From the NCBI GenBank assembly GCA_002011125.2, contig MTMF02000009.1:808989-872988 (forward strand): 64,000 bases of DNA, read 5' to 3'. Below are positions 3,400-32,055 of the stretch, in pieces. Under the pieces are notes generated by a model, which was not told the DNA's origin, did no database searches, and worked only from the letters and a program-made list of their open reading frames with translations. The position numbers and the translations under genes are program-made. The first letter of the stretch is position 1, and each line of letters begins with the position of its first letter. Source of the stretch: Candidatus Hydrothermarchaeum profundi. Its GTDB lineage: Archaea; Hydrothermarchaeota; Hydrothermarchaeia; Hydrothermarchaeales; Hydrothermarchaeaceae.

Positions 3400-5598
3400 A
3401 TGGAATTCGTTTCTCACCCTCTCATAAAAGAAGATACCTTGGAAGCAAGACTTTATCAGCAGGTTATAGTAGGCAGTGCGATCTCAGATAATACACTAGT
3501 CGTCGCTCCAACAGCATTGGGAAAGACTGTCATAGCTGTTTTGCTGGCCGCACACAGGCTAGAGAAATACCCCGATAGCATGGTACTGATGATTTCGTCC
3601 ACTAGGCCTCTCGTAAACCAGCATGCTGCCAGCTTCAAAAAATTCTTAAATATTAGCGAGGATGATATCAAGGTTTTCACAGGTCATACGCCACCAGAGG
3701 AAAGGAGAGAAATATGGAAAAGCGCAAAGGTGATCTGTGCTACGCCCCAGGTAATCAAGAATGACCTAATCTCGGGCAAGTATACCTTAGAGAATGTAAG
3801 CTTAATAATATTTGACGAAGCTCACAGAACAAGTGGCGATTACCCCTATGCCTTCATTGCAAAGCAGTATGTTAATACCTCTAAGAATCCTTTGATACTT
3901 GGGCTAACAGCATCCCCTGGGGCGGATGAGACTAGAATAAAGGAGGTCTGTGATAACTTATTCATTAAAAACATAGAAGTCAGGACCGAGTCAGATCCTG
4001 ATGTGAGACCCTATATCAAAGGGATGGATATAGAGTGGAGGATGCTTGACCTTCCAGAGGAGTTCTCAAGAATTAAAGAGGCGCTGGAGGAGGCTATGAA
4101 ACAGCGCTTAAAGAACCTGAAGGAAATAGGCCTTATTAGATCCACAGATGTCAGCATACCTAAAAAAGACCTGCTCGCTCTTAGGGGGAAGCTTCAAAAT
4201 GAACTTGCTAAGGGAGAAGCAGCTCCGGAGATATATATTGGAATCTCAAATGTCGCAGCATGTATAAATCTATCCCATGCCCTTGAGCTACTTGAAACCC
4301 AGGGACTAGAGACTCTTCAAAAATACTTTCATAGGCTTAGAAGCCAGTCAACTAAGGCAGCTAAAAATCTCATAAACGATGCGAAGGTAATGCGCGCCAT
4401 TAGGCTCACGGAAAACCTGTCATCGGAGTTACACCATCCTAAGCTCGACGCTCTGGTAGAGATTATAAAAAAGGAGAGGGGAAAGAGGATAATTGTTTTC
4501 ACTCAGTACCGGGACTCCGCTCAAAAGATAACAGAAAAGCTTGGAGAAATAAAGGGCATAAGGGCAGCTAGGTTCGTGGGTCAAGCCTCACGCTCTGAGG
4601 ATAAGGGCCTCACCCAAAAAGAACAGCTCGCCGTGCTAGAGAAATTCCGCTCAGGCGAGTACAATGTTCTTGTAAGTACCTCCGTTGGTGAAGAAGGCCT
4701 AGATATACCTAAAACCGATTTAGTTGTATTCTATGAGCCTATTCCAAGCGAGATCAGATCTATTCAAAGGAGAGGAAGAACAGGAAGGAGCAGAGCCGGA
4801 AAAGTAATCGTTCTTGTTACCAAGAATACCCGTGATGAGGGATTCTACTGGAGTAGCTTCCATAAGGAAAGGAAAATGAGAAAGGTATTAGACGGTCTAA
4901 AAGATAAATACTACAAGCCGAAGTTAGACGTTGCGCAGAAAGAGCTAAGGGATTTCTATGAAAGTTCTTTAGTTGTAGACTCAAGGGAGCTTTCTTCAAA
5001 TGTGCCGAAAGAGTTGCTCGAATTTGGGGTAATATCCAAGCCTAAGATGCTAGAAGTTGGGGACTATATTATAAGTGATAGAACCTGCGTAGAGAGAAAG
5101 ACCGCAGAGGACTTCCTAGGGAGTCTAGTAGATGGAAGGCTCATGCAGCAGATGAAAAGACTTAGAGAGGAATATTCAAGGCCGATTCTCATAATCGAGG
5201 GCGAGGGCATATACTCTAAGAGAGGAATACATCCTAACGCAGTTAGGGGGGCATTAGCAAGCATCGTTCTTGACTTTGGTATCCCTACTCTCTTCACAAG
5301 GGATGAAAAGGAGACAGCAGCCTTCCTAGCAGCCCTATTAAGGAGAGAGGAAAGAGAAAAAAGGGAAATACAGATCAGAGCAGATAAGAGGATATCCACC
5401 CTAAAAGAGCAGCAGGAGTCGGTGATAGCTGGACTTCCTAATATTAATATCATACTGGCAAGAAGGCTGCTTAAAGAGTTTGGATCTGTGTTAGGGGTAT
5501 TCACAGCAAGTGTAGAGGATTTAAAAAAAGTAAAAGGCATTGGAGACAAGACGGCTGAGGAGATACGGAGGGTTCTAACTCAGAGGTACGAGGAGTGA
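3400..5598 (+). CDS. hef: Hef helicase/nuclease (DEAH helicase + ERCC4/XPF nuclease + HhH)
   Basis: PTALGKT, DEAH, TASPG, QRRGRTGR, GDY..VERK nuclease motif, C-terminal GIG HhH. Confidence 0.95.
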   Translation: MEFVSHPLIKEDTLEARLYQQVIVGSAISDNTLVVAPTALGKTVIAVLLAAHRLEKYPDSMVLMISSTRPLVNQHAASFKKFLNISEDDIKVFTGHTPPEERREIWKSAKVICATPQVIKNDLISGKYTLENVSLIIFDEAHRTSGDYPYAFIAKQYVNTSKNPLILGLTASPGADETRIKEVCDNLFIKNIEVRTESDPDVRPYIKGMDIEWRMLDLPEEFSRIKEALEEAMKQRLKNLKEIGLIRSTDVSIPKKDLLALRGKLQNELAKGEAAPEIYIGISNVAACINLSHALELLETQGLETLQKYFHRLRSQSTKAAKNLINDAKVMRAIRLTENLSSELHHPKLDALVEIIKKERGKRIIVFTQYRDSAQKITEKLGEIKGIRAARFVGQASRSEDKGLTQKEQLAVLEKFRSGEYNVLVSTSVGEEGLDIPKTDLVVFYEPIPSEIRSIQRRGRTGRSRAGKVIVLVTKNTRDEGFYWSSFHKERKMRKVLDGLKDKYYKPKLDVAQKELRDFYESSLVVDSRELSSNVPKELLEFGVISKPKMLEVGDYIISDRTCVERKTAEDFLGSLVDGRLMQQMKRLREEYSRPILIIEGEGIYSKRGIHPNAVRGALASIVLDFGIPTLFTRDEKETAAFLAALLRREEREKREIQIRADKRISTLKEQQESVIAGLPNINIILARRLLKEFGSVLGVFTASVEDLKKVKGIGDKTAEEIRRVLTQRYEE

Positions 5599-15669: not shown

Positions 15670-16584
15670 TTAGAACCACGCAAACCACTCAGGTATCCCC
15701 TCTAATATGATCTTATCTCTCCAGAAAGTTATCCCCTTAACCTTCTCGCTTCTTTTCCATTCATAGGCGTAAATAATATCCTTTACCTTATCCACCTTCC
15801 ACACAGGAGTAAGCTGAGGCTCGGCCTCTTCTATACTGCTTAAATATTTCATCTCGACAGGCACAACGGAGCGTTTAGAAAATATAGGAGCCAAAGAGTT
15901 CCGGAAAGTAAACCACTCATCCCAGTCAGGTACCTCAAGATCAGTTTCTTTCTTATAGTCCTCATAATATAACTTCTCCTTACCCAGCTCAGATGAATAT
16001 GGAGCCGGAGAAGCCTCGATAAGAGCAGCACCTTCAACAACCCACGGGGCGGTAATAAACCCTGGAGAAGATAATTCTAAAGTGAATTCTTGATACCATC
16101 TCACCACTTTAATGCTTGGATTCTCTTTTTCAATTTTCTGAGGGTCTATAGTCCCGCTCCCTCCTATATCATTAACCGTAACCTTGATGATCGCCCCCTC
16201 ATTAGGCTTCAGCCACCATCCATACCTATCCCCTATCTTAATCACATGCTTTATAGGATTACCCGCTTCCGCTGCTCCTCGGCCAGTAAAAACTTCTCCT
16301 CTTCCAAGTAATGATTGCTTATCGTAGGGTAAGCCATAGATCCTCCAAAGGCCAAATTCTCTTACAGCATAGGACTGAGCAAAAGTACCAGAGGCCTCAG
16401 GAGTCCAGCCAGAGGGCAATGCAATGAAAATCTTATTATATCCCCAGTTTTCGATCTTTGCCTCTATCCTTGTGTTAATTTTGCTAATAGATCCATCAGG
16501 CACTTCCAGCATTTCAAATCCAGATTCTGCAGTAACTATCGAGAAACTTAACAACAACGTTAGGGCGAGAATAATCCATTTCAA
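15670..16584 (-). CDS. Secreted Trp-rich hypothetical protein, probably pilus-associated
   Basis: Sec-type signal peptide; lies 16 bp downstream of the DUF515-like gene on the same strand. Confidence 0.7.
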   Translation of the reverse strand: MKWIILALTLLLSFSIVTAESGFEMLEVPDGSISKINTRIEAKIENWGYNKIFIALPSGWTPEASGTFAQSYAVREFGLWRIYGLPYDKQSLLGRGEVFTGRGAAEAGNPIKHVIKIGDRYGWWLKPNEGAIIKVTVNDIGGSGTIDPQKIEKENPSIKVVRWYQEFTLELSSPGFITAPWVVEGAALIEASPAPYSSELGKEKLYYEDYKKETDLEVPDWDEWFTFRNSLAPIFSKRSVVPVEMKYLSSIEEAEPQLTPVWKVDKVKDIIYAYEWKRSEKVKGITFWRDKIILEGIPEWFAWF

Positions 16585-16600: not shown

Positions 16601-17764
16601 CTATTTTTTGGATATAGTCACAAAAATATTCTCCCGCTCAGGTGAAGTAGGAGAAGCCTTCAACACTAGGTCCGGGACTTCGTCTTCACTCACCTCAAAT
16701 AAGATAAGGTACTCTGCCTCGAGGTCACCTATCCCCATTTCGCTTTCTATCCTATTCAATTCGTACCCAAAGTTTCTTAGGCTTTCATCCAAGTCTTCTT
16801 CAGAGACCTTCCCAGCAGCTATAACTTTTTGAATCTCAGAAACATCTACGCTGAAGATTGTTTCAGTTTGCATACTTCTTCCCCCCGCGCTCCCTGCAAA
16901 GCTCCCTGGAAGGGTTCCCCAGCCTCCTGAAGATAATGGTGGTAAAGGAAATGTACTCATTGTCCCTTTTCCTTCTGCTCCTCCACCCGCCTCGGCTTTA
17001 GATTCTCTTTCCGTGAGAGATATCACCCCACTCTCCTTTCCCCTCATAATAGCAGTTACTACAGCATCTTTTGCTAATAAAGTAACATTCTCATCTTCTT
17101 TAAGCCAAATATTCACGATGTTCCCTGGCTCAGCCCATCCTCCAGCTTGTTCTCTGGTTAACCTAATTGGGAAATACTCTCTATAAAACTTGCCCACAGA
17201 TGCATCTTTAAGCTGTATATAGGATAACCGATCTATTGTCTCCAAAACCGTGGTATATCCTCTATAAATCTGTCCCTCGACTTCTATCTTTATATTCTCT
17301 GCGGGCATCAGCTCTTCAACTTTATCTTTCAAATATGACCGCCAAGCCTCTGTGGCAGGAGTGGCGACATCTATTGCACTAATCTGGGCAGTGGTTTTCG
17401 CTTTGTTCAGTTCATCAAGTAAAGACGCTTTTGCGGTAATATATACGGATGGTAAACCCAAGAAGGCGTTATTTATTTCTTTCAGTTTTTCAGACTTAGC
17501 CTGTAAAAAAGCTTGTTCGGCCGCTTTTTTAGCCGCTAGCTCAGCTTCTTTCCCCTCTTGCATTGGCTTATAGAGGAAGGTGTATCCTGCTAGAAACACA
17601 ACTCCTATTATGATAACTATGACTAATATTCCAACCCCCCTCGCCAATCTCCTTCTCCTCTCATCTTCAGGCGACGGTTCTTCGGGAGGAGGCTTTTCTT
17701 CTGGTGCACGCTTCCGTAGGGCCTCTAGTCTACCTACTATATCTTCTGGTTCCTTTTCGGCCAT
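16601..17764 (-). CDS. DUF515-like (CpaB/SAF-like) pilus accessory membrane protein
   Basis: Charged/Pro-rich N-terminus, single TM, coiled coil, PIRLTREQAGG..PGNIVNI SAF-like segment. Confidence 0.7.
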   Translation of the reverse strand: MAEKEPEDIVGRLEALRKRAPEEKPPPEEPSPEDERRRRLARGVGILVIVIIIGVVFLAGYTFLYKPMQEGKEAELAAKKAAEQAFLQAKSEKLKEINNAFLGLPSVYITAKASLLDELNKAKTTAQISAIDVATPATEAWRSYLKDKVEELMPAENIKIEVEGQIYRGYTTVLETIDRLSYIQLKDASVGKFYREYFPIRLTREQAGGWAEPGNIVNIWLKEDENVTLLAKDAVVTAIMRGKESGVISLTERESKAEAGGGAEGKGTMSTFPLPPLSSGGWGTLPGSFAGSAGGRSMQTETIFSVDVSEIQKVIAAGKVSEEDLDESLRNFGYELNRIESEMGIGDLEAEYLILFEVSEDEVPDLVLKASPTSPERENIFVTISKK

Positions 17765-17892: not shown

Positions 17893-18648
17893 TTATATAC
17901 TGAAGATTTCTTTGAAACGTGATAATAGAGAATATTTTGGAGAATATCTTTTACCTATAAGGCCTGCAGCCAGCTTCATTACTTCTTGGGAGGACTTGGA
18001 TCTAGGGTATTTTATAACGAAGGGAGTCTCATAATGCAGTGCTTTTTTGACATTCTTATCATAGGGAATCTTACAAATCACATTGACATCCAAGGTAGCT
18101 TCGACTTCATGAACTTTTACCTCTTGGGGTGTATTCTCAACCATGTTCATAACTCCCCCTATAACTTTAGCTCCCATTCTCTCAGCCAGAATTTTCATCT
18201 TTAAAGCATCAGACACTGAACTCACTTCTGGAGATGTTACAATTAAGACCTCTTGTCCAGCGTCCATTACCATAGCGGCATCTCTCCCCGCGGGAGCATC
18301 TACTACAAGTATCTCTATATCCCGTGGAACTTCTTTTAATGCCGCCTTAAGCATTTCCATATTCTCTTCGTTAAACCCATTCAGAGTGATACCGGCCGGT
18401 ATCAGCTTAACCCCTCGCGGACCCTCAAACATAACGTCCTCTATGCTCAACTTATTCTGTAAAACATCTATCAATGCTACAGGAGGATTTTTAAGCCCCA
18501 TTATAATCTCTAAGTTCGCCATCACGATGTCTGCATCAAGCACAGCAACCCTCTTCCCTAGCATCGCTAATGCAACCGCTATATTCGCAGCCAAGGTAGT
18601 TTTCCCAACGCCGCCTTTCCCGCTGGCGACTACTATCACCCTGGTCAT
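17893..18648 (-). CDS. MinD/TadZ-like P-loop ATPase
   Basis: SGKGGVGKTT, DADIVMANL, DAPAG. Confidence 0.88.
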   Translation of the reverse strand: MTRVIVVASGKGGVGKTTLAANIAVALAMLGKRVAVLDADIVMANLEIIMGLKNPPVALIDVLQNKLSIEDVMFEGPRGVKLIPAGITLNGFNEENMEMLKAALKEVPRDIEILVVDAPAGRDAAMVMDAGQEVLIVTSPEVSSVSDALKMKILAERMGAKVIGGVMNMVENTPQEVKVHEVEATLDVNVICKIPYDKNVKKALHYETPFVIKYPRSKSSQEVMKLAAGLIGKRYSPKYSLLSRFKEIFSI

Positions 18649-19958: not shown

Positions 19959-22900
19959 ATGAATTACGACTTTTTAAGAAAAAAAGGTAAAAACGTCTAC
20001 ACTAATGGTGGAGAAGAAAAGATTGGCGGCCTTCTAGGCAAGCTCATGAAGAGGAGGATGAGGGAAGAAGACACTTTAAGCTCCATAGATATGGAGCTGG
20101 AAACCGAGATAGAGGGCGAGGTCATCGAGAGAGGAAAGGGATATAGTATTGTAAAAAAAGAAGGAGAAAAGACACTTTATTATATAGTCTACTTGCCTGA
20201 AATGGATGAGGAACGTAGAAGAGCTTTGAAAGAGATAGAGAGGCGAGCTATTAGCGAGATAGACATAGAGCCCGAGAGTATAGAGGATCCTTTGGAGAGG
20301 AAAGAGATTTTTACTAGGGAGGTGCGGTCTCTTATCGAAAAAGAATTCTCAGAGTTGCCTGAACATGAAAAAAAGGTCTATGCTAGGCTAATAGTCCAGG
20401 ACATGGTTGGCTACGGCTTGCTAGAGCCCCTGCTTGAAGACGACAATCTAGAAGAGGTGATGATTGTTGGCACGAAGAAGAGGGTTTATGTTTATCACAG
20501 GAAGCACGGTATGTGCAAGACGAACATTATATTCCAAGAAGATAGAGAAATAACCAGTATTATAGAGAGGATAGCTAGATCTGTAGGCAGAAGAATAGAT
20601 TTGAGTGCACCCTTATTAGATGCTAGGCTTCCTGATGGTAGCAGGGTCAACGCAACAATACCTCCTGTTTCTCTCACAGGCCCTTCTCTAACTATCAGAA
20701 AATTTAAAGCAGACCCCTTTACTGTTATTGATATAATGAATTTTAGAACAATGACACCTGAGCTGGCCGCCTTTCTTTGGTTGGTTGTAGAGGGATTTGG
20801 AGTGAAGCCGGCGAATATTTTGGTGTCAGGCGGTACTGGATCAGGAAAAACTACGACTCTGAATTGTTTAGGTTCTTTTATACCTCCTACGGATCGTGTT
20901 ATAAGCATAGAAGATACGGCTGAACTCCAGCTTCCCGTTGCGCATTGGGTAAGGTTGGAGACGAGGCCACCTAATATAGAGGGGAGAGGCGAAGTCAGCA
21001 TGGATATGCTCCTTAAGAATACTTTGAGGATGAGGCCTGATAGGATTATAGTTGGCGAGGTAAGGGGTAGTGAAGCATTAACACTTCTTGCGGCTATGAA
21101 TACAGGCCAGAGCGGGTGTCTAGGTACTCTCCACGCTAATACTGCGAGAGAAACTATTACTCGACTTACGAGTGCTCCTATGAATGTCCCCCTTGTGATG
21201 ATACCTTCTCTAAACTTAATTCTCATGCAAAATAGGTTTACTTACAAGGGAAAGGTAGTTAGGAGAATAACGGAAATCGCAGAAATTTCCGGTATTGAAA
21301 GAGATAGAGTTCAGCTAAACATAATATATGAGTGGGACCCTGTAGATGATACAGTGAAGCCGACAGGTTCTCCAAGCATAATGTTAAGAAAGATTGCTGA
21401 GCTGAGAGGCATTGAAGTAAGCGATGTGATTGAGGAAATAAAGAGAAGAGAAAAAGTATTAAGATATCTAATGAAGGAAGGCATAAGAAGCATTACTGAT
21501 GTTGGAAAATTAGTAAATGAGTATTATATTTCACCAGAGAGACTAATGGCTAAAGTAGAGGGGAGGGAAACAAAAGATAAAGCAAAGCGTAAGAGTAATA
21601 AAGGCTATGAGTTCCTAAGAGAAGTTCTTGAGGAAGAGGAAGAAATTAAGGAAATTGTAGAAGAGGGGGAAACCTATAGGATTGTTAGAGAGGAGGGAGA
21701 AAAAAATCCGAAATATATTGTGCCACTGCCTCACCTTACTTCAAGAGATAGGAGGATACTGGCCGAGATTGAAAAGAAAGCGATTAACGAGATAAAGGAA
21801 GATCCTTCTAATCTCGATAAAGAAGAAGCTCGAGTACTTTTCAGGAATAAGGTACTAGAGGTAATGAAAAGAGAATATCCGGGTATAGGTTCTTCTCGAA
21901 GGAAGGAACTTGCTGAACTTATTGTACAGAACATGGTTGGCTACGGCTTGCTGGAACCACTACTGGAGGAGGATGCTTTGGAGGAGATAATGGTTATTTC
22001 TCCAAACAGACCGGTTTATGTAAACCATAGAAAATATGGAACATGTAAGACTAATGTTTCCTTTAGCAATGATGAAGAAATAATGAGAATAATTGAGAAG
22101 ATAGCTAGCTCTGTGGGTAGAAGAATAGATAAAGCGACTCCCCTCCTGGACGCTAGGCTTCCTGATGGTAGCAGGGTCAACGCAACAATACCTCCAATAT
22201 CCATTATGGGGCCGACATTGACTATAAGAAAATTCAGGAAAAACCCACTAACAGTAGTTGACTTAGTGAAATTTAGAACTATAACATTAGAAGTTGCCAC
22301 TTACCTATGGATTATTGTAGAAGGCCTTGGAATAAAACCTGGAAATATACTTGTTGTTGGTGGGAGTGGTTGCGGTAAAACAACAACTCTAAATGTTCTT
22401 TGCTCATTTGTTCCAGATACAGATCGTGTTATAACCATAGAAGATACAGCCGAGCTTAACTTGCCGATTGAGCATTGTATAAAGCTTGAGACTAGACCAC
22501 CAAATGTAGAGGGGCAGGGTGAGGTTACTATGGATGATCTGGTCAAGAATACTTTGAGGATGAGGCCTGATAGGATTATAGTTGGAGAGGTAAGGGGGCC
22601 AGAAGCTAGAACTCTGTTTACTGCAATGAACACAGGCCATGATGGCTGTATGGGCACTCTTCACGCTAACTCTGCAGAAGAGACGATAATTAGGCTAACT
22701 AATCCCCCAATGAGTGTACCAGAGATTATGCTTCCTGCCCTCGATTTAATCTTGATGCAGAGCAAGATTTACCAAGAAGGCAAAACAATTAGAAGGATTA
22801 CAGAGGTCGCCGAGGTGTCGGGTGGAGAAGAGGGGAAAATATCCTTAAATAATGTGTTTAAATGGGATCCGAAAGCAGACTCTTTAAAAGCTACGGGATT

Positions 22901-23117
22901 GCCTAGCATTATAAAGCAAAGGCTTGCGAAGCTTAAGGGAATAAGTCTAGACGAATTAGAAAAAGAAGTTGAAAATAGAAAGAAAGTTTTGACGTGGATA
23001 GTGGAGAATAATATCAGAGAGGACTCAAAGATATATAACAAATATTACTCTGATCCAGAAGGTTTACTAAAAGAAATAGCAATAAAAGCCACAGCAGATG
23101 GAGGAGAGAATGCCTGA
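19959..23117 (+). CDS. Type IV pilus/Tad secretion ATPase with two tandem VirB11/CpaF modules
   Basis: Two full motif sets: Walker A GGTGSGKTT / GGSGCGKTT, Asp box IEDTAEL twice, Walker B RMRPDRIIVGEVRG twice, His box TGQSGCLGTLH / TGHDGCMGTLH. Confidence 0.93.
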   Translation: MNYDFLRKKGKNVYTNGGEEKIGGLLGKLMKRRMREEDTLSSIDMELETEIEGEVIERGKGYSIVKKEGEKTLYYIVYLPEMDEERRRALKEIERRAISEIDIEPESIEDPLERKEIFTREVRSLIEKEFSELPEHEKKVYARLIVQDMVGYGLLEPLLEDDNLEEVMIVGTKKRVYVYHRKHGMCKTNIIFQEDREITSIIERIARSVGRRIDLSAPLLDARLPDGSRVNATIPPVSLTGPSLTIRKFKADPFTVIDIMNFRTMTPELAAFLWLVVEGFGVKPANILVSGGTGSGKTTTLNCLGSFIPPTDRVISIEDTAELQLPVAHWVRLETRPPNIEGRGEVSMDMLLKNTLRMRPDRIIVGEVRGSEALTLLAAMNTGQSGCLGTLHANTARETITRLTSAPMNVPLVMIPSLNLILMQNRFTYKGKVVRRITEIAEISGIERDRVQLNIIYEWDPVDDTVKPTGSPSIMLRKIAELRGIEVSDVIEEIKRREKVLRYLMKEGIRSITDVGKLVNEYYISPERLMAKVEGRETKDKAKRKSNKGYEFLREVLEEEEEIKEIVEEGETYRIVREEGEKNPKYIVPLPHLTSRDRRILAEIEKKAINEIKEDPSNLDKEEARVLFRNKVLEVMKREYPGIGSSRRKELAELIVQNMVGYGLLEPLLEEDALEEIMVISPNRPVYVNHRKYGTCKTNVSFSNDEEIMRIIEKIASSVGRRIDKATPLLDARLPDGSRVNATIPPISIMGPTLTIRKFRKNPLTVVDLVKFRTITLEVATYLWIIVEGLGIKPGNILVVGGSGCGKTTTLNVLCSFVPDTDRVITIEDTAELNLPIEHCIKLETRPPNVEGQGEVTMDDLVKNTLRMRPDRIIVGEVRGPEARTLFTAMNTGHDGCMGTLHANSAEETIIRLTNPPMSVPEIMLPALDLILMQSKIYQEGKTIRRITEVAEVSGGEEGKISLNNVFKWDPKADSLKATGLPSIIKQRLAKLKGISLDELEKEVENRKKVLTWIVENNIREDSKIYNKYYSDPEGLLKEIAIKATADGGENA
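20401..22585 (+). repeat. Direct-repeat blocks of the internal ATPase duplication, offset 1530 bp
   Basis: Identical blocks 20401-20422=21931-21952 (22 nt), 20622-20665=22152-22195 (44 nt), 21015-21055=22545-22585 (41 nt). Confidence 0.9.
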
Positions 23118-25515: not shown

Positions 25516-26982
25516 TTACCCAGTTTTCCATTTTATTTTAAGCAGAGTTGCAGTTGCGTTGTTTTGCATAGATATTTTAATGATTTCTAATTCGCTACAA
25601 TTTATAAAAGGAAACATTCTTTCTCCTGTGCTATTCACGATTAGTAAGTAGTTTATGTTATTGTTTAACATTATTTTTTTAGCATTTGTGAAGTTGCTTT
25701 CCTTCATAAGTTTATTAAACAAATCTTTGTTTTGAGTCCATTTTTTTGTATCAGTCAAATCGCTAAGAAAAGTGCTTGCGTTTGAGTAATAAGCTATCGC
25801 ATGGCCTATGTTGGGGTTATTAGTTAGAATTAGATCCTTATCTGTTAATTCAGCGCCTAAAAGGACTTCTTGAACCACAGAGACGTATTTATCAACCTTT
25901 TCTCCATGCATCTCATACGTCATGAGGAGATTTAAAGAGATTAAAGATAAAAAAATAAAGAGGGATAGAGGCATCCCATAACTTATACCTTGTTTGGTTT
26001 TTAATTTATAGATAGAGTATAATGACGTGGCGATCAAAATACAAATCATAAAAACGAAAAGTACAAATAAATTAGCTTTGAAAAAAATCAGACTCAGAGA
26101 AAGAGACGAAAATAGAGCTAGTTGAGTGTTTTTTTTGAAGAAAATGTAAATGCCGTGGAGTATTAATGGAAAATTTGTTAGGTTGAATACGGAGAAATAA
26201 AATAGTAGCACGGAAAAAGCCCACCAAATGTCTACTGATGGGACTTCTCTAAGGGGGGAGATTAGCGGTTTATATTCGGAAGTATATCCGAGGGAAAAGT
26301 TGAGGTAGGGTATAAACCGGGAGTAATATAACGCTGCTATAATAATCGGAATAATTAGGGTTATGAGTATATTCTTTAAATATTTCTTGTCTTTTACACT
26401 TAGAGAGGATACTATGATAAAAACTAAAACTATTATCACAGAGCTATGAGCAAGAAAGTATATAATTTCTATAATCGACGCTACGATTCCCCATTTTATA
26501 TTATCTTTCAGCTTATACAGGGAGTATACAAGGGCAATTGCTAATAGTATCGATAATCCTATCGGTCGAGCCCAAAGTCCTGCTCGTAGTAGAATTACTG
26601 GAGTAACCGAAAATATGGTAGCCGAAATAATGCCAATGTGTCTATTTAGCGTACGACCTAGGCAATACACGAATAAGAGTGCTATAATACCAAATAAGAC
26701 GTTTAATAGACTTCCTATTGTAATATAATCAAACGTAGGGAAAATAAACTTCCCTATCGCAATCCATATGTGGTAAGCAGGAGGATAATAATATGGGATA
26801 CCCCCCAGCTCCTGAGTATCCCATTCGGGAATATTGTAATCCTCATATATACCCTTAGCTATTCTTGCGTGATAAAAGGCATCATAGTCTAAGAGGATAG
26901 GAGAAAAATTTGAGAGCCATATCCTCATAAAAAGAGATATTAAAATTATAAGTAGGAGTGCGAAGCAATTGATTCGCTTCAT
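25516..26982 (-). CDS. STT3/AglB-like GT-C membrane glycosyltransferase
   Basis: LLDYDAFYHARIA (DxD-like), WD..GG..YYYPP, about 12 TM segments, small soluble C-terminal domain; noticeably AT-rich. Confidence 0.7.
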   Translation of the reverse strand: MKRINCFALLLIILISLFMRIWLSNFSPILLDYDAFYHARIAKGIYEDYNIPEWDTQELGGIPYYYPPAYHIWIAIGKFIFPTFDYITIGSLLNVLFGIIALLFVYCLGRTLNRHIGIISATIFSVTPVILLRAGLWARPIGLSILLAIALVYSLYKLKDNIKWGIVASIIEIIYFLAHSSVIIVLVFIIVSSLSVKDKKYLKNILITLIIPIIIAALYYSRFIPYLNFSLGYTSEYKPLISPLREVPSVDIWWAFSVLLFYFSVFNLTNFPLILHGIYIFFKKNTQLALFSSLSLSLIFFKANLFVLFVFMICILIATSLYSIYKLKTKQGISYGMPLSLFIFLSLISLNLLMTYEMHGEKVDKYVSVVQEVLLGAELTDKDLILTNNPNIGHAIAYYSNASTFLSDLTDTKKWTQNKDLFNKLMKESNFTNAKKIMLNNNINYLLIVNSTGERMFPFINCSELEIIKISMQNNATATLLKIKWKTG

Positions 26983-27890: not shown

Positions 27891-28742
27891 GTGATTGCAA
27901 GTTTCATAATAACACTTAGAGAAGGACTTGAAGCTGCTTTAATAATAGGAGTATTGGCCGCTTACTTAGCGAAAATTGGTCGAAGAGACCTTAACAAGTA
28001 CATATACATGGGTACGGGATTAGCGGTCATGGCGAGTATAGTAGTAGCAGGGATATTTGCACTGGTTTATGGAGGATTAAGCGGGGAAGCTGGGGAACTC
28101 TTTGAAGGAATAGCAACTCTTTCAGCTTCTGCGGTTCTAACATACATGATTTTTTGGATGGCTAAACATTCAAAAGAAATAAAAGGAGAATTACAGAGAA
28201 AAGTTGACATAGCTATTTCCACAGGAGCTGTTGCGGGACTAGTCGGAGTAGCATTCATATCAGTGTTCAGAGAAGGAGTTGAAACCGTTTTATTCCTTGG
28301 TGCGATAGCTTTCCAAGACCCTATAGGGACTTTTACAGGATTAATTCTTGGAGTAGCTGTGGCGGTAGGCTTTGCTGTCATGATGTTTAAGGGAGTCTAT
28401 AGGCTCGATATAAGAAAGTTCTTCAAGTATACCAGCATTATATTAATAGTATTTGCAGCAGGACTTACGGCATATGGTGTGCACGAGCTTAATGAAGCAG
28501 GGGTCATCCCCCCAGTGATTGAACATGTTTGGGATATAAATCCCCCTATAAATCCTGATGGAACCTATCCACTGCTACATGAAAAAGGAGCTATTGGTTC
28601 GATTTTAAAATCTCTCTTTGGGTACAATGGGAATCCCTCTCTGACAGAAGTACTTGCCTACCTAGGATACTGGCTCATCATCGGTACTTATGTGATGCGC
28701 TCGTACAAGTATAGTGAAAAAGAAGCTCTAGCTCCGGCATAA
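27891..28742 (+). CDS. FTR1/EfeU family iron permease
   Basis: Two REGxE motifs (REGLE, REGVE); GAGGTGA RBS. Confidence 0.93.
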   Translation: MIASFIITLREGLEAALIIGVLAAYLAKIGRRDLNKYIYMGTGLAVMASIVVAGIFALVYGGLSGEAGELFEGIATLSASAVLTYMIFWMAKHSKEIKGELQRKVDIAISTGAVAGLVGVAFISVFREGVETVLFLGAIAFQDPIGTFTGLILGVAVAVGFAVMMFKGVYRLDIRKFFKYTSIILIVFAAGLTAYGVHELNEAGVIPPVIEHVWDINPPINPDGTYPLLHEKGAIGSILKSLFGYNGNPSLTEVLAYLGYWLIIGTYVMRSYKYSEKEALAPA

Positions 28743-28819
28743 TAAAACTAGAAAGAGGAGTCTCCTAAGGCTCCTCAAAGCTTCTATTACATATAGGTTA
28801 ATGGAGAGGAGAGATATTC

Positions 28820-30784
28820 GTGCATCAACACCATAAAGAAGTCATTAAGATAGGGAAAAAAATAGTGCTAGTTGGAAACCCAAATGTTGGTAAAAGCGTG
28901 ATTTTCAGTCTTCTCACTGGAAGATATGTTACTGTTTCTAATTACCCTGGCACCACAGTAGAGCTGGCCCAGGGGTATGCGAAATTTGATAGAGAGATTT
29001 TGATTATTGATACTCCTGGAGTAAATAACCTAATACCGATGTCTGAGGATGAGAAGGTCACGAGGGATATATTACTTAATGAGGAGATTGAAGGGGTTGT
29101 CCAGGTCATAGATGCTAAGAATCTTAGGCGCGGACTTCTAATAACTCTCCAACTATCTGAGATGGGTTTACCTTTTATAATAAACTTGAATATGGAGGAT
29201 GAAGCGAGGAGTAGGGGTATTTTTATTGATTACAAGAAGCTCGAAGAAATCCTTGGAGTAAAAGTAGTTCCAACTATAGCTACCCAGAGAAAAGGGATTA
29301 GTAGCCTTATAAGCGGCATATCTTATTTAAAAAAATCAAAAGTAAAACCTGAATATAGTGCAGATATTGAAGATGCTATCTCTGAGATTGAGGAAATATT
29401 ACCTGAAACTAGAATCTCCAAGAGAAGTTTAGCTGTGATGCTATTAGCAGGTGATGAAAGTCTCCGCAGCTGGCTTCATAGGAATCTGGATTCAAAGGAA
29501 ATAAGTAAGATAGAGGAGATTAGGAATAAGACTCAGAGGGTGTATCCAGATCCTCTGGGTCATTTAATCAATACCCAGCGTATAAGCCAAGCTGACAAAA
29601 TCCTTAAGAGAGTAGTCACAACGACTAAAGTAAAAAGAGAGACATTTTCTCAAAGGATTGGAAACGCCTGTATGCATCCCCTCTGGGGCATACCAATCTT
29701 GTTTATAGTATTGTTTTTGATGTATAAGTTTGTTGGTGAATTTGGAGCTGGTGTATTAGTTGATTTTCTAGAGTCCGTAGTTTTCGGGAGATATCTTAAC
29801 CCGATCTCAATTAGCGTTGTGGAGAAACTAATACCGGTTAAAATAATACAGGAAGTTCTTGTTGGAGAGTACGGGATCATCACCATGGCTTTAACTTATT
29901 CCATAGCCATAGTTCTTCCAATTGTTGGGACCTTTTTTTTGGCGTTTGGAGTATTGGAGGACTCAGGATATTTGCCTAGGCTTGCTATCATGGTAAATAA
30001 AATTTTCAAGTTAATGGGCTTGAATGGTAAAGCTGTTCTCCCAATGGTTTTAGGCCTGGGATGTGATACGATGGCAACCCTGACAACTAGGATTTTGGAA
30101 ACAAGAAAAGAGAGAATAATTGTTACACTTTTACTAGCGCTGGGGGTACCCTGCTCTGCGCAGCTTGGTGTAATCCTAGGAATGCTTTCAAGCCTTTCAG
30201 GAGCCGCTGCGCTAATATGGGGAGGAGTAGTGATAAGTGTAATATTCTTTGTGGGAATGCTAGCGAGCTACATTGTTCCAGGAGAGAGGTCGGATTTTAT
30301 TCTTGAACTTCCTCCTATAAGAGTTCCTCAGTTTTCTAACATAATGGTTAAGACATTGGCGAGAATAGAATGGTATCTTAGAGAAGCTGTCCCGCTTTTT
30401 GTATTGGGCACTTTGGTACTATTTGTTTCTGATAAGATGGGCCTACTAGGATTGCTAGAGGAAGTTGCGTCTCCGGTGGTGGTAGGATTTCTTGGGTTGC
30501 CGGTTAAGGCTACTGAGGCATTCCTAGTGGGATTTTTAAGAAGGGATTATGGTGCGGCAGGGCTCTTTGCTTTAGCAAGAGAAGGCGCTCTGGACCCGAT
30601 TCAAATGGTCGTTAGTTTGGTAGTTATAACGCTATTTGTCCCGTGTATAGCTAACTTTTTGATTATTATAAAAGAAAGAGGATTAAAGACAGCACTAGCC
30701 ATCGTTTCCTTCATATTTCCCTTTGCATTCATAGTCGGAGGGATATTGAATTTCATACTCCGCTATCTCGGAGTAAAATTATAG
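28820..30784 (+). CDS. feoB: Ferrous iron transporter B
   Basis: GNPNVGKS, NYPGTTV, DTPG, LEDSGYLPR, PCSAQ, FILELPP, PCIA. Confidence 0.96.
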   Translation: MHQHHKEVIKIGKKIVLVGNPNVGKSVIFSLLTGRYVTVSNYPGTTVELAQGYAKFDREILIIDTPGVNNLIPMSEDEKVTRDILLNEEIEGVVQVIDAKNLRRGLLITLQLSEMGLPFIINLNMEDEARSRGIFIDYKKLEEILGVKVVPTIATQRKGISSLISGISYLKKSKVKPEYSADIEDAISEIEEILPETRISKRSLAVMLLAGDESLRSWLHRNLDSKEISKIEEIRNKTQRVYPDPLGHLINTQRISQADKILKRVVTTTKVKRETFSQRIGNACMHPLWGIPILFIVLFLMYKFVGEFGAGVLVDFLESVVFGRYLNPISISVVEKLIPVKIIQEVLVGEYGIITMALTYSIAIVLPIVGTFFLAFGVLEDSGYLPRLAIMVNKIFKLMGLNGKAVLPMVLGLGCDTMATLTTRILETRKERIIVTLLLALGVPCSAQLGVILGMLSSLSGAAALIWGGVVISVIFFVGMLASYIVPGERSDFILELPPIRVPQFSNIMVKTLARIEWYLREAVPLFVLGTLVLFVSDKMGLLGLLEEVASPVVVGFLGLPVKATEAFLVGFLRRDYGAAGLFALAREGALDPIQMVVSLVVITLFVPCIANFLIIIKERGLKTALAIVSFIFPFAFIVGGILNFILRYLGVKL

Positions 30785-30797
30785 GTAGGGATGTAAA

Positions 30798-30962
30798 ATG
30801 AAGTGTGAACTATGCGGTAATGAATTTGATGAGAATAAAGTCACCTATTGCAAGGGGTGCATGTATTCGAATTGTAGAATGATTTGTTGCCCTTACTGCA
30901 GGTATCAATACGTAGGAGAATCTAAAATTGTAAGTATAATAAGGAGGATATTAAAGTGGTGA
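30798..30962 (+). CDS. 54-aa Cys-rich microprotein, FeoC-like position (not in the ORF track)
   Basis: MKCELCGNEFDENKVTYCKGCMYSNCRMICCPYCRYQYVGESKIVSIIRRILKW; 8 Cys; fills the gap between feoB and the DtxR gene. Confidence 0.8.
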   Translation: MKCELCGNEFDENKVTYCKGCMYSNCRMICCPYCRYQYVGESKIVSIIRRILKW

Positions 30963-31639
30963 GGATGAAGAGCAGGGAAATTGATGAAACTCGGATCGAG
31001 GAAATATTAGAACTCTTATGGACGATGAGGGAGAAAGGAACAGTACTCTTAGAGGATATTATAAAGGCATCTGATGAAGAATGTCCTGAAGATATTTTAG
31101 AAGAAATAGAGAAAAAAGGCTTAATAGTAGTAAGAGAGGGCAGAGTTAGACTTGTTGATGAAGGTGAAAAGAAAGCTGAGGAAATAGTAAGACGGCATCG
31201 TCTTGCAGAAGTACTTCTCTCAGAGGTATTTGAGCTTGAGGAAAAATATGCTCATTCAGAGGCTTGTAAGTTTGAGCACATTTTAAGCCCGGAGGTAACT
31301 GATAGTGTTTGTACTTTTTTAGGACATCCACCTGCATGTCCTCATGGAAATCCAATACCTAGGGGTAACTGTTGCAGTAAGTTTGAAAGAGAGGTTAAGC
31401 CTCTCGTAGTGCCTCTTAGAGAATTAAGCCCAGGGGATGAGGGAAGAATAGTGTTTATTGTACCTAAGGATCATACTAGATTGGATAAGCTAGGCACATT
31501 AGGAGTGACTCCCGGTAGCATTATAAAGTTACATCAGAAGAGGCCGTCATATGTTATAAAAATTGGAGAAACAGAGTTGGCTGTAGAAGATGATATAGCA
31601 AAGGATATATACGTAAAAAAGATTGAAGGTCAAAAATGA
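30956..31639 (+). CDS. DtxR-family metal-binding domain fused to a C-terminal FeoA domain (start perhaps 30965)
   Basis: RRHRLAEVLL, ACKFEH, CPHGNPIP; FeoA-like LRELSPGDEG..LGTLGVTPGS..IKIGETELAV. Confidence 0.9.
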   Translation: MVRMKSREIDETRIEEILELLWTMREKGTVLLEDIIKASDEECPEDILEEIEKKGLIVVREGRVRLVDEGEKKAEEIVRRHRLAEVLLSEVFELEEKYAHSEACKFEHILSPEVTDSVCTFLGHPPACPHGNPIPRGNCCSKFEREVKPLVVPLRELSPGDEGRIVFIVPKDHTRLDKLGTLGVTPGSIIKLHQKRPSYVIKIGETELAVEDDIAKDIYVKKIEGQK

Positions 31640-32055
31640 AGGTTTCCGAAAACATCCAAGAGTATCTTGAGATTTTATGGATATTTGAAGAGGAGGGAAA
31701 AAAACCCGCAAAGATAAACGAGATAGCTAATGGCTTAAATATTGCTGCACCTAGTGCCGTTGAGATGCTGAGAAAGATGGCGGATGAGGGATTTGTTGTT
31801 TATGAAGCTAGAAAAGGTATCACCTTAACTAAAAAAGGAAGAGAAATCGCAAGGCAGATAATTAGAAACCATAGGCTTTCTGAGCTTCTGCTTACGAAGG
31901 TTATCAGGACCAAGATAGACGAGGACGCTGTATGCGGATTTGAACATCATATTTCAGAGGAGATCGCTGATGCCGTGTGCACTATCCTAAATCATCCTAA
32001 AGAATGTCCGCATGGAAAGTCGATTCCGCGAGGAAAATGTTGCCCTAAGGCTTAG
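31636..32055 (+). CDS. DtxR/MntR-family metal-dependent repressor (short)
   Basis: QEYLE, intact HTH EIANGLNIAAPSAVEML, RNHRLSE, CGFEH, CPHG. Confidence 0.92.
   Translation: MKVSENIQEYLEILWIFEEEGKKPAKINEIANGLNIAAPSAVEMLRKMADEGFVVYEARKGITLTKKGREIARQIIRNHRLSELLLTKVIRTKIDEDAVCGFEHHISEEIADAVCTILNHPKECPHGKSIPRGKCCPKA

Follow-up and report, generated by a model that had tools for sequence, protein, structure and literature searches.

How one ring ATPase both extends and retracts Tad and Epd pili is unsettled, as are two further points: whether the ring works with C2, C3 or C6 symmetry, and how many platform heterodimers are driven by it (preprint; PMC12019362; PMC11300603). Such questions normally call for concatemers engineered to carry mutations at only part of the six sites. 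The stretch of DNA analysed here, a 64,000-nt window of contig MTMF02000009.1 from the uncultured hydrothermal-vent archaeon Candidatus Hydrothermarchaeum profundi, carries a gene for a tandem ATPase in which two non-identical VirB11/CpaF-type modules lie in one polypeptide. The locus raises the question of whether this fusion is real, which filament it serves and how its modules are arranged. The explanation favored here, held with somewhat better than even confidence, is that the protein is the motor of an archaeal clade-1 (Epd/Tad-type) pilus, that an ancient duplication fused two complete units, and that three chains form an alternating ring. The tandem ATPase is a conserved, unstudied variant of a known motor and a natural linked-subunit form of a ring that is normally made of six identical chains.

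Two Complete Modules in One Polypeptide

The gene is one uninterrupted, ATG-started open reading frame (ORF) of 1052 codons with no internal stop, and it encodes a chain of ~120 kDa. A first-pass annotation of the window had described it as a single ORF with two complete secretion-ATPase modules, and profile, alignment and structure prediction all agree with that description. The Pfam T2SSE model matches the 1052-aa product in two stretches (whole-protein E 4e-99; 332 bits vs. a cut-off of 24.9), and a T2SSE search of the organism's own genome gives 167-173 bits for each module. Residues 1-524 and 525-1052 are 57% identical across 462 aa. The modules are offset by exactly 510 codons, and the annotated motif positions and codon coordinates were exact on recheck.

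An AlphaFold2 model of the 1052-aa chain was built on 62 orthologues and has a mean predicted local distance difference test score (pLDDT) of 81.9 and a predicted template modeling score (pTM) of 0.76. The order of elements is predicted to be the same in both modules: an N-terminal beta/helical part, NTD2, a catalytic domain, and a C-terminal helical domain, which in module 1 is PilB3_C-like. The only disordered regions of the model are residues 1-46, the linker at residues 538-561, and the last four residues. A pTM of 0.76 over the whole chain despite a disordered linker suggests that the two modules pack against each other in a defined way. In Foldseek comparisons either module matches three solved proteins over their whole chains, A. 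fulgidus GspE2 and FlaI with a TM-score on the target of 0.83 and CpaF with 0.75-0.77.

In sequence searches, CpaF, A. fulgidus GspE2 (2OAP, aligned over the full length) and FlaI are the closest proteins of known structure. The best match is the bifunctional Tad motor CpaF/TadA of Caulobacter crescentus (PDB 8RKD, 8RJF, 9E24; E 1e-85). CpaF has the same set of catalytic residues as both tandem modules, and its system resembles the present one in having one ATPase, two split platform proteins (CpaG/CpaH, compared with TadB/TadC-like proteins here), a Flp-type pilin (a putative one here), and no PilT. CpaF differs in having one module per chain and in forming a C2-symmetric homohexamer (PMC11300603, PMC12019362), whereas here two diverged modules are joined and one of the His boxes contains Gln. 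The host differs as well, since this is an archaeon without the outer-membrane parts of a Tad system. Each tandem module superposes on the whole chain of GspE2 and of S. acidocaldarius FlaI (4II7), including the N-domain, and the 2OAP sequence alignment covers residues 29-534 of the tandem protein. Both, however, are single-module chains, and FlaI is an archaellum protein.

Integrity and Conservation of the Fusion

The genome assembly is 2.19 Mb and 97.65% complete, and the window lies within a contig of more than 1.4 Mb. Three public sequencing runs from three studies (X1, X2 and X3) contain the stretch, all as DNA contigs. In X1 a 1156-nt contig matches positions 21026-22181 with zero differences and runs from the end of module 1 through the linker into the first part of module 2; X1 is possibly the sample of origin and hence not independent. 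The contigs of X2, a run of another study, cover most of this region, including most of the linker, also with zero differences. The contig from X3, the third study, belongs to a 95-98% identical strain and crosses positions 21363-22001 with 11 substitutions and no insertion or deletion. Applying these substitutions to the ORF introduces no stop and makes three conservative residue changes. A stop, a frameshift or a misassembly in the linker, which the first-pass annotation had named as the observations that would split the gene in two, is thus found in none of the contigs from the three studies that cross it.

The same architecture is kept in related genomes. Among the genomes of the same order, both modules lie in one open frame of ~990-1190 aa in 26 of 34; the gene is cut at contig ends in three and has no close match in five. 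Among the other genomes of the class, one of three has the fusion, in a sister order. The matches across the relatives' genomes contain no stops, and the ORF is intact in all eight relative loci that were fetched (1018-1132 aa). Of the 121 database proteins examined, including the query, 72 are two-module proteins of the query's type, and the named sources of these are Candidatus Hydrothermarchaeales, -aceae or -ota. The first-pass annotation had counted it against its reading if the tandem form were already common and characterized: the form is common in metagenomic data, and the literature searches found no characterization of it.

One source of doubt comes from the repeats themselves, for stretches of 30-42 nt that are identical between the modules break de Bruijn graphs and leave contig joints and loose ends. 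Two such joints ("skips 199" and "goes back 1296") were considered as rearrangements and rejected; they are graph breaks at the inter-module repeats, because the loose-end sequences translate to the sequence of the other module. An error of assembly or gene calling, or a recent pseudogene-like read-through from one gene into its neighbor, has a negligible probability as the origin of the fusion, given the contig that joins both modules without a difference, the coverage of the linker by three studies, and the conservation of modules and register across relatives. For practical purposes this explanation is refuted.

Catalytic Residues and the His Box

The catalytic residues were mapped from CpaF numbering (PMC12019362). 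The Walker A residues K287/T288 of CpaF correspond to K297/T298 in module 1 and K807/T808 in module 2, the Asp-box residue E312 to E322 and E832, and the catalytic Walker B residue E357 to E367 and E877. The NTD arginine fingers R217 and R223 correspond to R223 and R229 in module 1 and to R733 and R739 in module 2, the trans arginine R347 to R357 and R867, and D215 to D221 and D731. All mapped catalytic residues in both modules are invariant or at least 90% conserved among the 62 orthologues. In an alignment of 66 full-length orthologues, 143 positions reach at least 90% conservation in both modules; the residue is the same at 138 of them and differs at five (S243/T753, F272/Y782, S290/A800, L352/V862 and Q384/H894), of which only Q384/H894 is located in a motif. 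The mean entropy over the 66 orthologues is 0.97 for module 1 and 1.07 for module 2, which makes module 1 slightly more conserved, and the mean identity among orthologues is 66% for module 1 and 64% for module 2. The two modules are therefore about equally constrained.

The sole radical module-specific change is at the first His-box histidine. The first-pass annotation had contrasted TGQSG in module 1 with TGHDG in module 2, and both readings are exact; the difference is also kept in the orthologues. The first His-box residue is Gln in module 1 of 62/66 orthologues (94%) and His in module 2 of all 66. At this position of module 1 the sister-order form has Leu, and three clusters (P0059-61) have His. 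Both histidines that characterize the family are present in module 2 (H894 and H902), while module 1 has Q384 and keeps only H392. The missing histidine lowers the case for a canonical site in module 1 only and does not affect the family membership of the protein. A second proposed difference, GTGSGKT vs. GSGCGKT in the Walker A motifs, is present in the query protein; it is not a conserved feature of the modules. Cys occurs in the module 2 Walker A motif of only 21 of the tabulated two-module Q/H-type rows, and the Ser/Cys difference was rejected as a module signature since it varies among orthologues.

Structural work on PilB found that a threonine at the closed interface of the packing unit is sandwiched by the two His-box histidines, of which the second binds the gamma-phosphate, and His-box mutations in the family disrupt ATPase activity and function (PMC5424180). 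The role of the second histidine is held by H382 in CpaF (PMC11300603). Because module 1 keeps the second histidine, both modules read as competent ATPases, with module 1 probably altered in inter-subunit coupling and not in chemistry.

Operon and Filament Type

The ATPase gene is followed by two genes for platform proteins and one for a putative small pilin, whose coordinates are collected with those of the other features in Table 1. The start of platform protein 1 overlaps the ATPase stop by 20 nt, and platform protein 2 begins six bases past platform protein 1. The order ATPase-platform-platform is found in 8/8 relatives examined, and the arrangement suggests that the ATPase gene is translationally coupled to the two split platform genes. 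The 68-aa candidate pilin came from Pfam; a regular-expression search for class III signal peptides gave nothing useful. It scores 23.6 bits with Class_IIIsignal, just below the cut-off of 23.7, and has a weak Flp_Fap match (E 0.002), and its KAQG/AIEY motif followed by a hydrophobic stretch is typical of such pilins. One or two pilin homologues occur at the same downstream place in 4/8 relatives. Two PF01478 matches for an A24 prepilin peptidase, the enzyme class that in clade 1 is represented by EppA, lie in open frames of 218 and 407 aa elsewhere on the contig, outside the locus.

Clade-1 archaeal pili have an ATPase, two TadC-type proteins, major pilins of ~70 aa, and a FleN/MinD ATPase (Makarova et al., PMC4858521), and they are related to the bacterial Tad system (Denise et al., PMC6668835). 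Every component listed for these systems, which include the Epd pili of Methanococcus maripaludis and loci in Thermococcus (PMC4858521), has a counterpart or a candidate counterpart here. They differ in having a single-module ATPase, and the present locus is minimal, with four genes and neither a large adhesin nor sets of minor pilins. Among single-module proteins, Thermococcus ATPases are the nearest relatives, with 54-58% identity. The premise that archaeal and Tad pili have no dedicated PilT also holds, since the PilT family is described as absent from archaea (PMC4858521) and Tad pili use a single bifunctional ATPase (PMC12019362, PMC11300603). Judged by its genes, the operon is that of a clade-1/Epd/Tad-type pilus and not of an archaellum.

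Automatic naming points elsewhere. JGI names and several other sources call the protein or its relatives FlaI, the archaellum motor FlaI/ArlI, and the NCBIfam FlaI model gives 653 bits against a cut-off of 550. This score, however, is the sum of two matched stretches, and a single module lies well below the cut-off. Neither ArlH nor ArlJ nor an archaellin is encoded beside the gene, which is followed by two single-domain platform genes and one for a putative Flp-like pilin. The true archaellum operons of relatives (ArlH-ArlI-ArlJ) have their own ArlI proteins, which score 707-711 bits each and are 32-34% identical to the tandem protein. An archaellum function is accordingly very improbable.

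Upstream, a divergent gene string encodes PGK, an archaeal MinD-type ATPase, a DUF515 protein and a 304-aa protein. The MinD/FleN-type ATPase is a possible TadZ/CpaE-like accessory, and a close homologue of it (70-76% identity) adjoins the locus in 4/8 relatives. PGK and this MinD homologue stand together beside the locus in L101, L104, L105 and L108, and the DUF515 and 304-aa proteins in L103, L105 and L108 (3/8); at least one of the two pairs is present in 5/8 relative loci.

Table 1. Features of the tandem ATPase and its operon. Positions are those of the window.
Feature	Position	Strand	Basis or remark
Tandem two-module T2SSE/CpaF-like ATPase gene, P0001	19959..23117	+	Single ORF, kept in relatives
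Module 1, ~residues 62-535	20142..21563	+	phmmer domain 62-533; Pfam PilB3_C 473-537; AlphaFold2 secondary structure
Walker A of module 1, GTGSGKT at aa 292, K297	20832..20852	+	G296/K297/T298 invariant in 62 orthologues
His box of module 1, T382-G-Q384 ... H392	21102..21134	+	First His replaced by Gln (codon 21108-21110), second His kept
Inter-module linker, residues 538-561, charged	21570..21641	+	Predicted disordered, pLDDT <50
Module 2, ~residues 562-1045, domain series as in module 1	21642..23093	+	phmmer, self-alignment, AlphaFold2
Walker A of module 2, GSGCGKT at aa 802, K807	22362..22382	+	Cys variable among orthologues
His box of module 2, T892-G-H894 ... H902, canonical	22632..22664	+	TGHDG, H894 codon 22638
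Platform protein 1, TadB-like, one T2SSF domain, 381 aa	23098..24243	+	Pfam T2SSF E 2e-21
Platform protein 2, TadC-like, one T2SSF domain, 313 aa	24249..25190	+	Pfam T2SSF E 1e-18
Putative small Flp-like/class III signal-peptide pilin, 68 aa	25305..25511	+	...KAQG/AIEYILLAGGIIVAAVVIF...; 115 bases past platform protein 2
MinD/FleN-type ATPase	17893..18648	-	NCBIfam minD_arch 259 bits
DUF515 membrane protein	16601-17764	-	Conserved neighbor
304-aa protein without family match	15670-16584	-	Conserved neighbor

Arrangement of the Modules

ATPases of this family form six-subunit rings in which the NTD2 of each subunit (n) packs against the catalytic domain of the next (n+1) (PMC11300603). The simplest and most likely assembly of the tandem protein would be one six-module ring made of three chains, with module 1 and module 2 alternating. 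In such a ring the catalytic domain of one module and NTD2 of the next would form the packing unit, with one kind of unit within a chain and one between chains. Because the PilB His-box histidines clamp a threonine at the closed packing-unit interface, Gln in module 1 would make every second closed interface different and would build a two-fold alternation of coupling into the ring. In a C2-type cycle, opposite ring positions would always be occupied by one module 1 and one module 2, and the three fused pairs would match three TadB/TadC heterodimers. Fusions of two and three modules divide six and fit an in-plane ring, as does the packing that the pTM of 0.76 would imply. The first-pass annotation had suggested that the two modules could pair with the two platform proteins. 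This idea is weakened by the clade-1 systems of archaea and the Tad systems of bacteria that have a single-module ATPase and likewise carry two TadC-type genes (PMC4858521). It survives in the form of one heterodimer per fused pair, for the CpaF model places each CpaG/CpaH heterodimer across two neighboring ATPase subunits, possibly with three heterodimers per hexamer (Hohl et al., PMC11300603). The further suggestion that the two modules separate extension from retraction is pure speculation.

Several points weigh against the three-chain alternating ring and against the ancient duplication from which it would derive. The four-module protein P0004 exists, and four is no divisor of six and fits stacked rings or mixed assemblies better. 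Other tandem RecA-type ATPases, KaiC and EccC, stack their rings and do not alternate in plane, and p97 is a further precedent for stacked rings. The pTM of 0.76 does not say which module packing was predicted, and covariation of the module 1 His-box state with the module 2 Walker A motif, which would have favored in-plane packing, was looked for and none was found. No RNA run was listed among the public runs for the stretch. The deep nodes of the module trees are unresolved under the better model (LG+C20), so that in-place duplication and the fusion of older paralogues both fit. In CpaF, the C-terminus lies on the face opposite the N-domains (preprint), and a short linker from C-terminus to N-terminus also suits a head-to-tail stack.

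The last of these points leads to an arrangement in which six chains form two stacked hexameric rings, one per module, with one ring engaging the platform and the other serving as a second motor, a regulator or a retraction face. Stacking accommodates any number of modules, and proteins with two, three and four all occur; P0004 is found on 5 contigs and is not a collapsed form of the two-module P0084. On the other hand, no stacked double hexamer is described for PilT/VirB11-like ATPases in the parts of the literature that were covered, and the N-domains and the CpaF-type platform-facing surface are kept and equally conserved in both modules, which is unexpected if one ring never meets the membrane complex. 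The domain swap between NTD2 of one subunit and the C-terminal domain of the next is moreover a ready-made in-plane contact for neighboring modules (PMC11300603). Stacked rings are on balance unlikely, though they are the strongest of the alternatives. A different division of labor, in which module 1 is a non-catalytic or weakly catalytic nucleotide sensor and module 2 the sole motor site, would give an alpha3-beta3-like in-plane ring. Only module 1 has lost the first His-box histidine, the loss of this residue from one module recurs in independent fusions, and His-box mutations in the family are the disruptive ones noted above. Module 1 nevertheless keeps the Walker A Lys and Thr, the Asp-box Glu, the catalytic Glu, three Arg fingers and the gamma-phosphate-binding second His as invariant residues, it is if anything the more conserved module, and clusters P0059-61 keep its His. 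A sensor role for module 1 is for these reasons rather improbable. The three-chain alternating ring with two probably competent module types remains the preferred arrangement. It is a doubtful further step that the fused pair is the partner of one TadB/TadC heterodimer in a fixed 3:3 motor-platform complex, in which platform and ring would not turn against each other and each of the two classes of site would do a different job, for example pilin insertion and pilin removal or resetting.

Relation to Open Questions About Single-Motor Pili

Searches of the openly accessible literature found no published description of a fused or tandem secretion ATPase of this kind. Term searches of the text of PMC4858521 and PMC6668835 found no mention of a fusion. 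The ATPase shows no gene fusion according to a 2026 census of archaeal type IV filaments (PMC13705601), a statement that the tandem ATPase corrects. As a natural and conserved concatemer from a thermophile lineage, the tandem protein offers what is otherwise engineered, for one mutation would alter every second site, and in an alternating ring every second site would already carry a natural change in one contact between subunits. Because the fusion ties the C-terminus of module 1 for good to a further module, it bears directly on the hexamer-inversion mechanism that has been proposed. The tandem ATPase is useful for the open questions about single-motor pili. If the 3:3 motor-platform complex is true, the recurrent two-, three- and four-module CpaF/Epd fusions would show that the identity of neighbors can be hard-wired, and they would offer a natural way to tell the rotary, gyratory and hexamer-inversion models of these pili apart.

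Occurrence and Origin of Multi-Module ATPases

Of the 121 proteins in the first search, including the query, two modules are present in 87, three in 14 and four in one, and the other 19 are single or partial. Among the best 150 representatives at 50% clustering, eight have two modules and two have three. Counts of matched stretches overcount modules, for 30 of these 150 are single modules split by large insertions. Module trees were built with FastTree (107 rows) and with a quick IQ-TREE LG+C20 analysis (57 rows), and they support at least four independent fusions of two, three or four modules. In the query form, the core module 1 and module 2 clades branch in parallel. In a lineage of 818-900-aa two-module proteins the modules are sisters within a clade of support 99. 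The third lineage consists of two- and three-module proteins of Chloroflexota, in which modules 2 and 3 are recent duplicates, and the fourth of long bacterial three-module proteins. The four-module P0004 (1680 aa) is a doubled version of the 818-900-aa lineage; identity to P0084 is 84% over its first pair of modules and 73% over its last pair. No relative of P0085, a member of the same lineage, was found in the genome contigs searched.

The other multi-module CpaF-like proteins belong to the same ATPase branch and are likewise whole-module fusions. They differ from the tandem protein in being independent duplications, with much shorter linkers and with N-domains that are reduced in the later modules, and their His-box losses, where present, affect other modules than here. 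In the 818-900-aa lineage His is replaced by Val in module 2 (6 clusters) and by Ile in module 1 (one cluster), and three-module proteins have Lys or Gln at the first His-box position of one module.

In the module phylogeny, which the first-pass annotation had proposed, the core module 1 and module 2 clades run in parallel. With FastTree module 1 forms one clade (support 87); the LG+C20 quick tree leaves P0066, P0069, P0072 and P0076 unresolved, and the two modules of P0069 pair together. The identity between modules 1 and 2 (51-65%) is no higher than their identity to single-module relatives.

Unfused genes of the same kind are found in two same-order genomes. L117:2847-6336 (G012:C12) contains two adjacent single-module ATPase genes of 696 and 464 aa that are 4 nt apart, and L113:2582-5398 (G020:C8) contains a row of ATPase ORFs of 470, 100 and 366 aa, possibly a broken fusion. 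These ATPases are ~48-52% identical to the tandem protein, and the gene pairs may be unfused counterparts of the two-module motor. The genome of the tandem protein itself contains two orphan single-module paralogues of 499 and 467 aa (C9:425046-426545, minus strand, and C9:22641-24044, plus strand), 53% and 50% identical to it. One of these adjoins a MinD-like gene, and no platform gene was found within ~8 kb of either. A third, distant ATPase (747 aa) at C9:1275962-1280057 adjoins a 620-aa platform gene.

A duplicated motor gene also occurs in archaellum operons of relatives. In L111:1569-7319 (G026:C6) and in L109, L110 and L112, two adjacent ArlI/FlaI genes lie between ArlH and ArlJ. Those of L111 encode proteins of 541 and 564 aa that score 707 and 711 bits with the NCBIfam FlaI model, and L114 has a single ArlI. 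The duplication contradicts the statement of a single copy per subsystem in PMC13705601.

The KlbA intein is known from the PilT/VirB11-like ATPase family. The insertions that split single modules in the 30 representatives (within P0132-P0275) are ~170-560 aa long and fall at a few recurring sites, mainly around Walker A (near query positions 238-246), near position 261 and in the His box (near 328). By length and placement they are candidate inteins.

Other Features of the Window

A 488-aa membrane protein with a weak DUF6541 match is encoded on the minus strand at positions 25516-26982, convergent to the pilin gene, and has a homologue at the same place in 1/8 relatives (L105, 36% identity). 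Downstream of the operon's neighbors, positions 27891-32052 hold an ordinary iron-uptake cluster with an FTR1 permease, FeoB and two DtxR-type repressors, one of which is fused to FeoA. A 732-aa helicase at positions 3400-5595 on the plus strand has a C-terminal ERCC4 nuclease and HhH motifs, which is the ordinary domain order of archaeal Hef.

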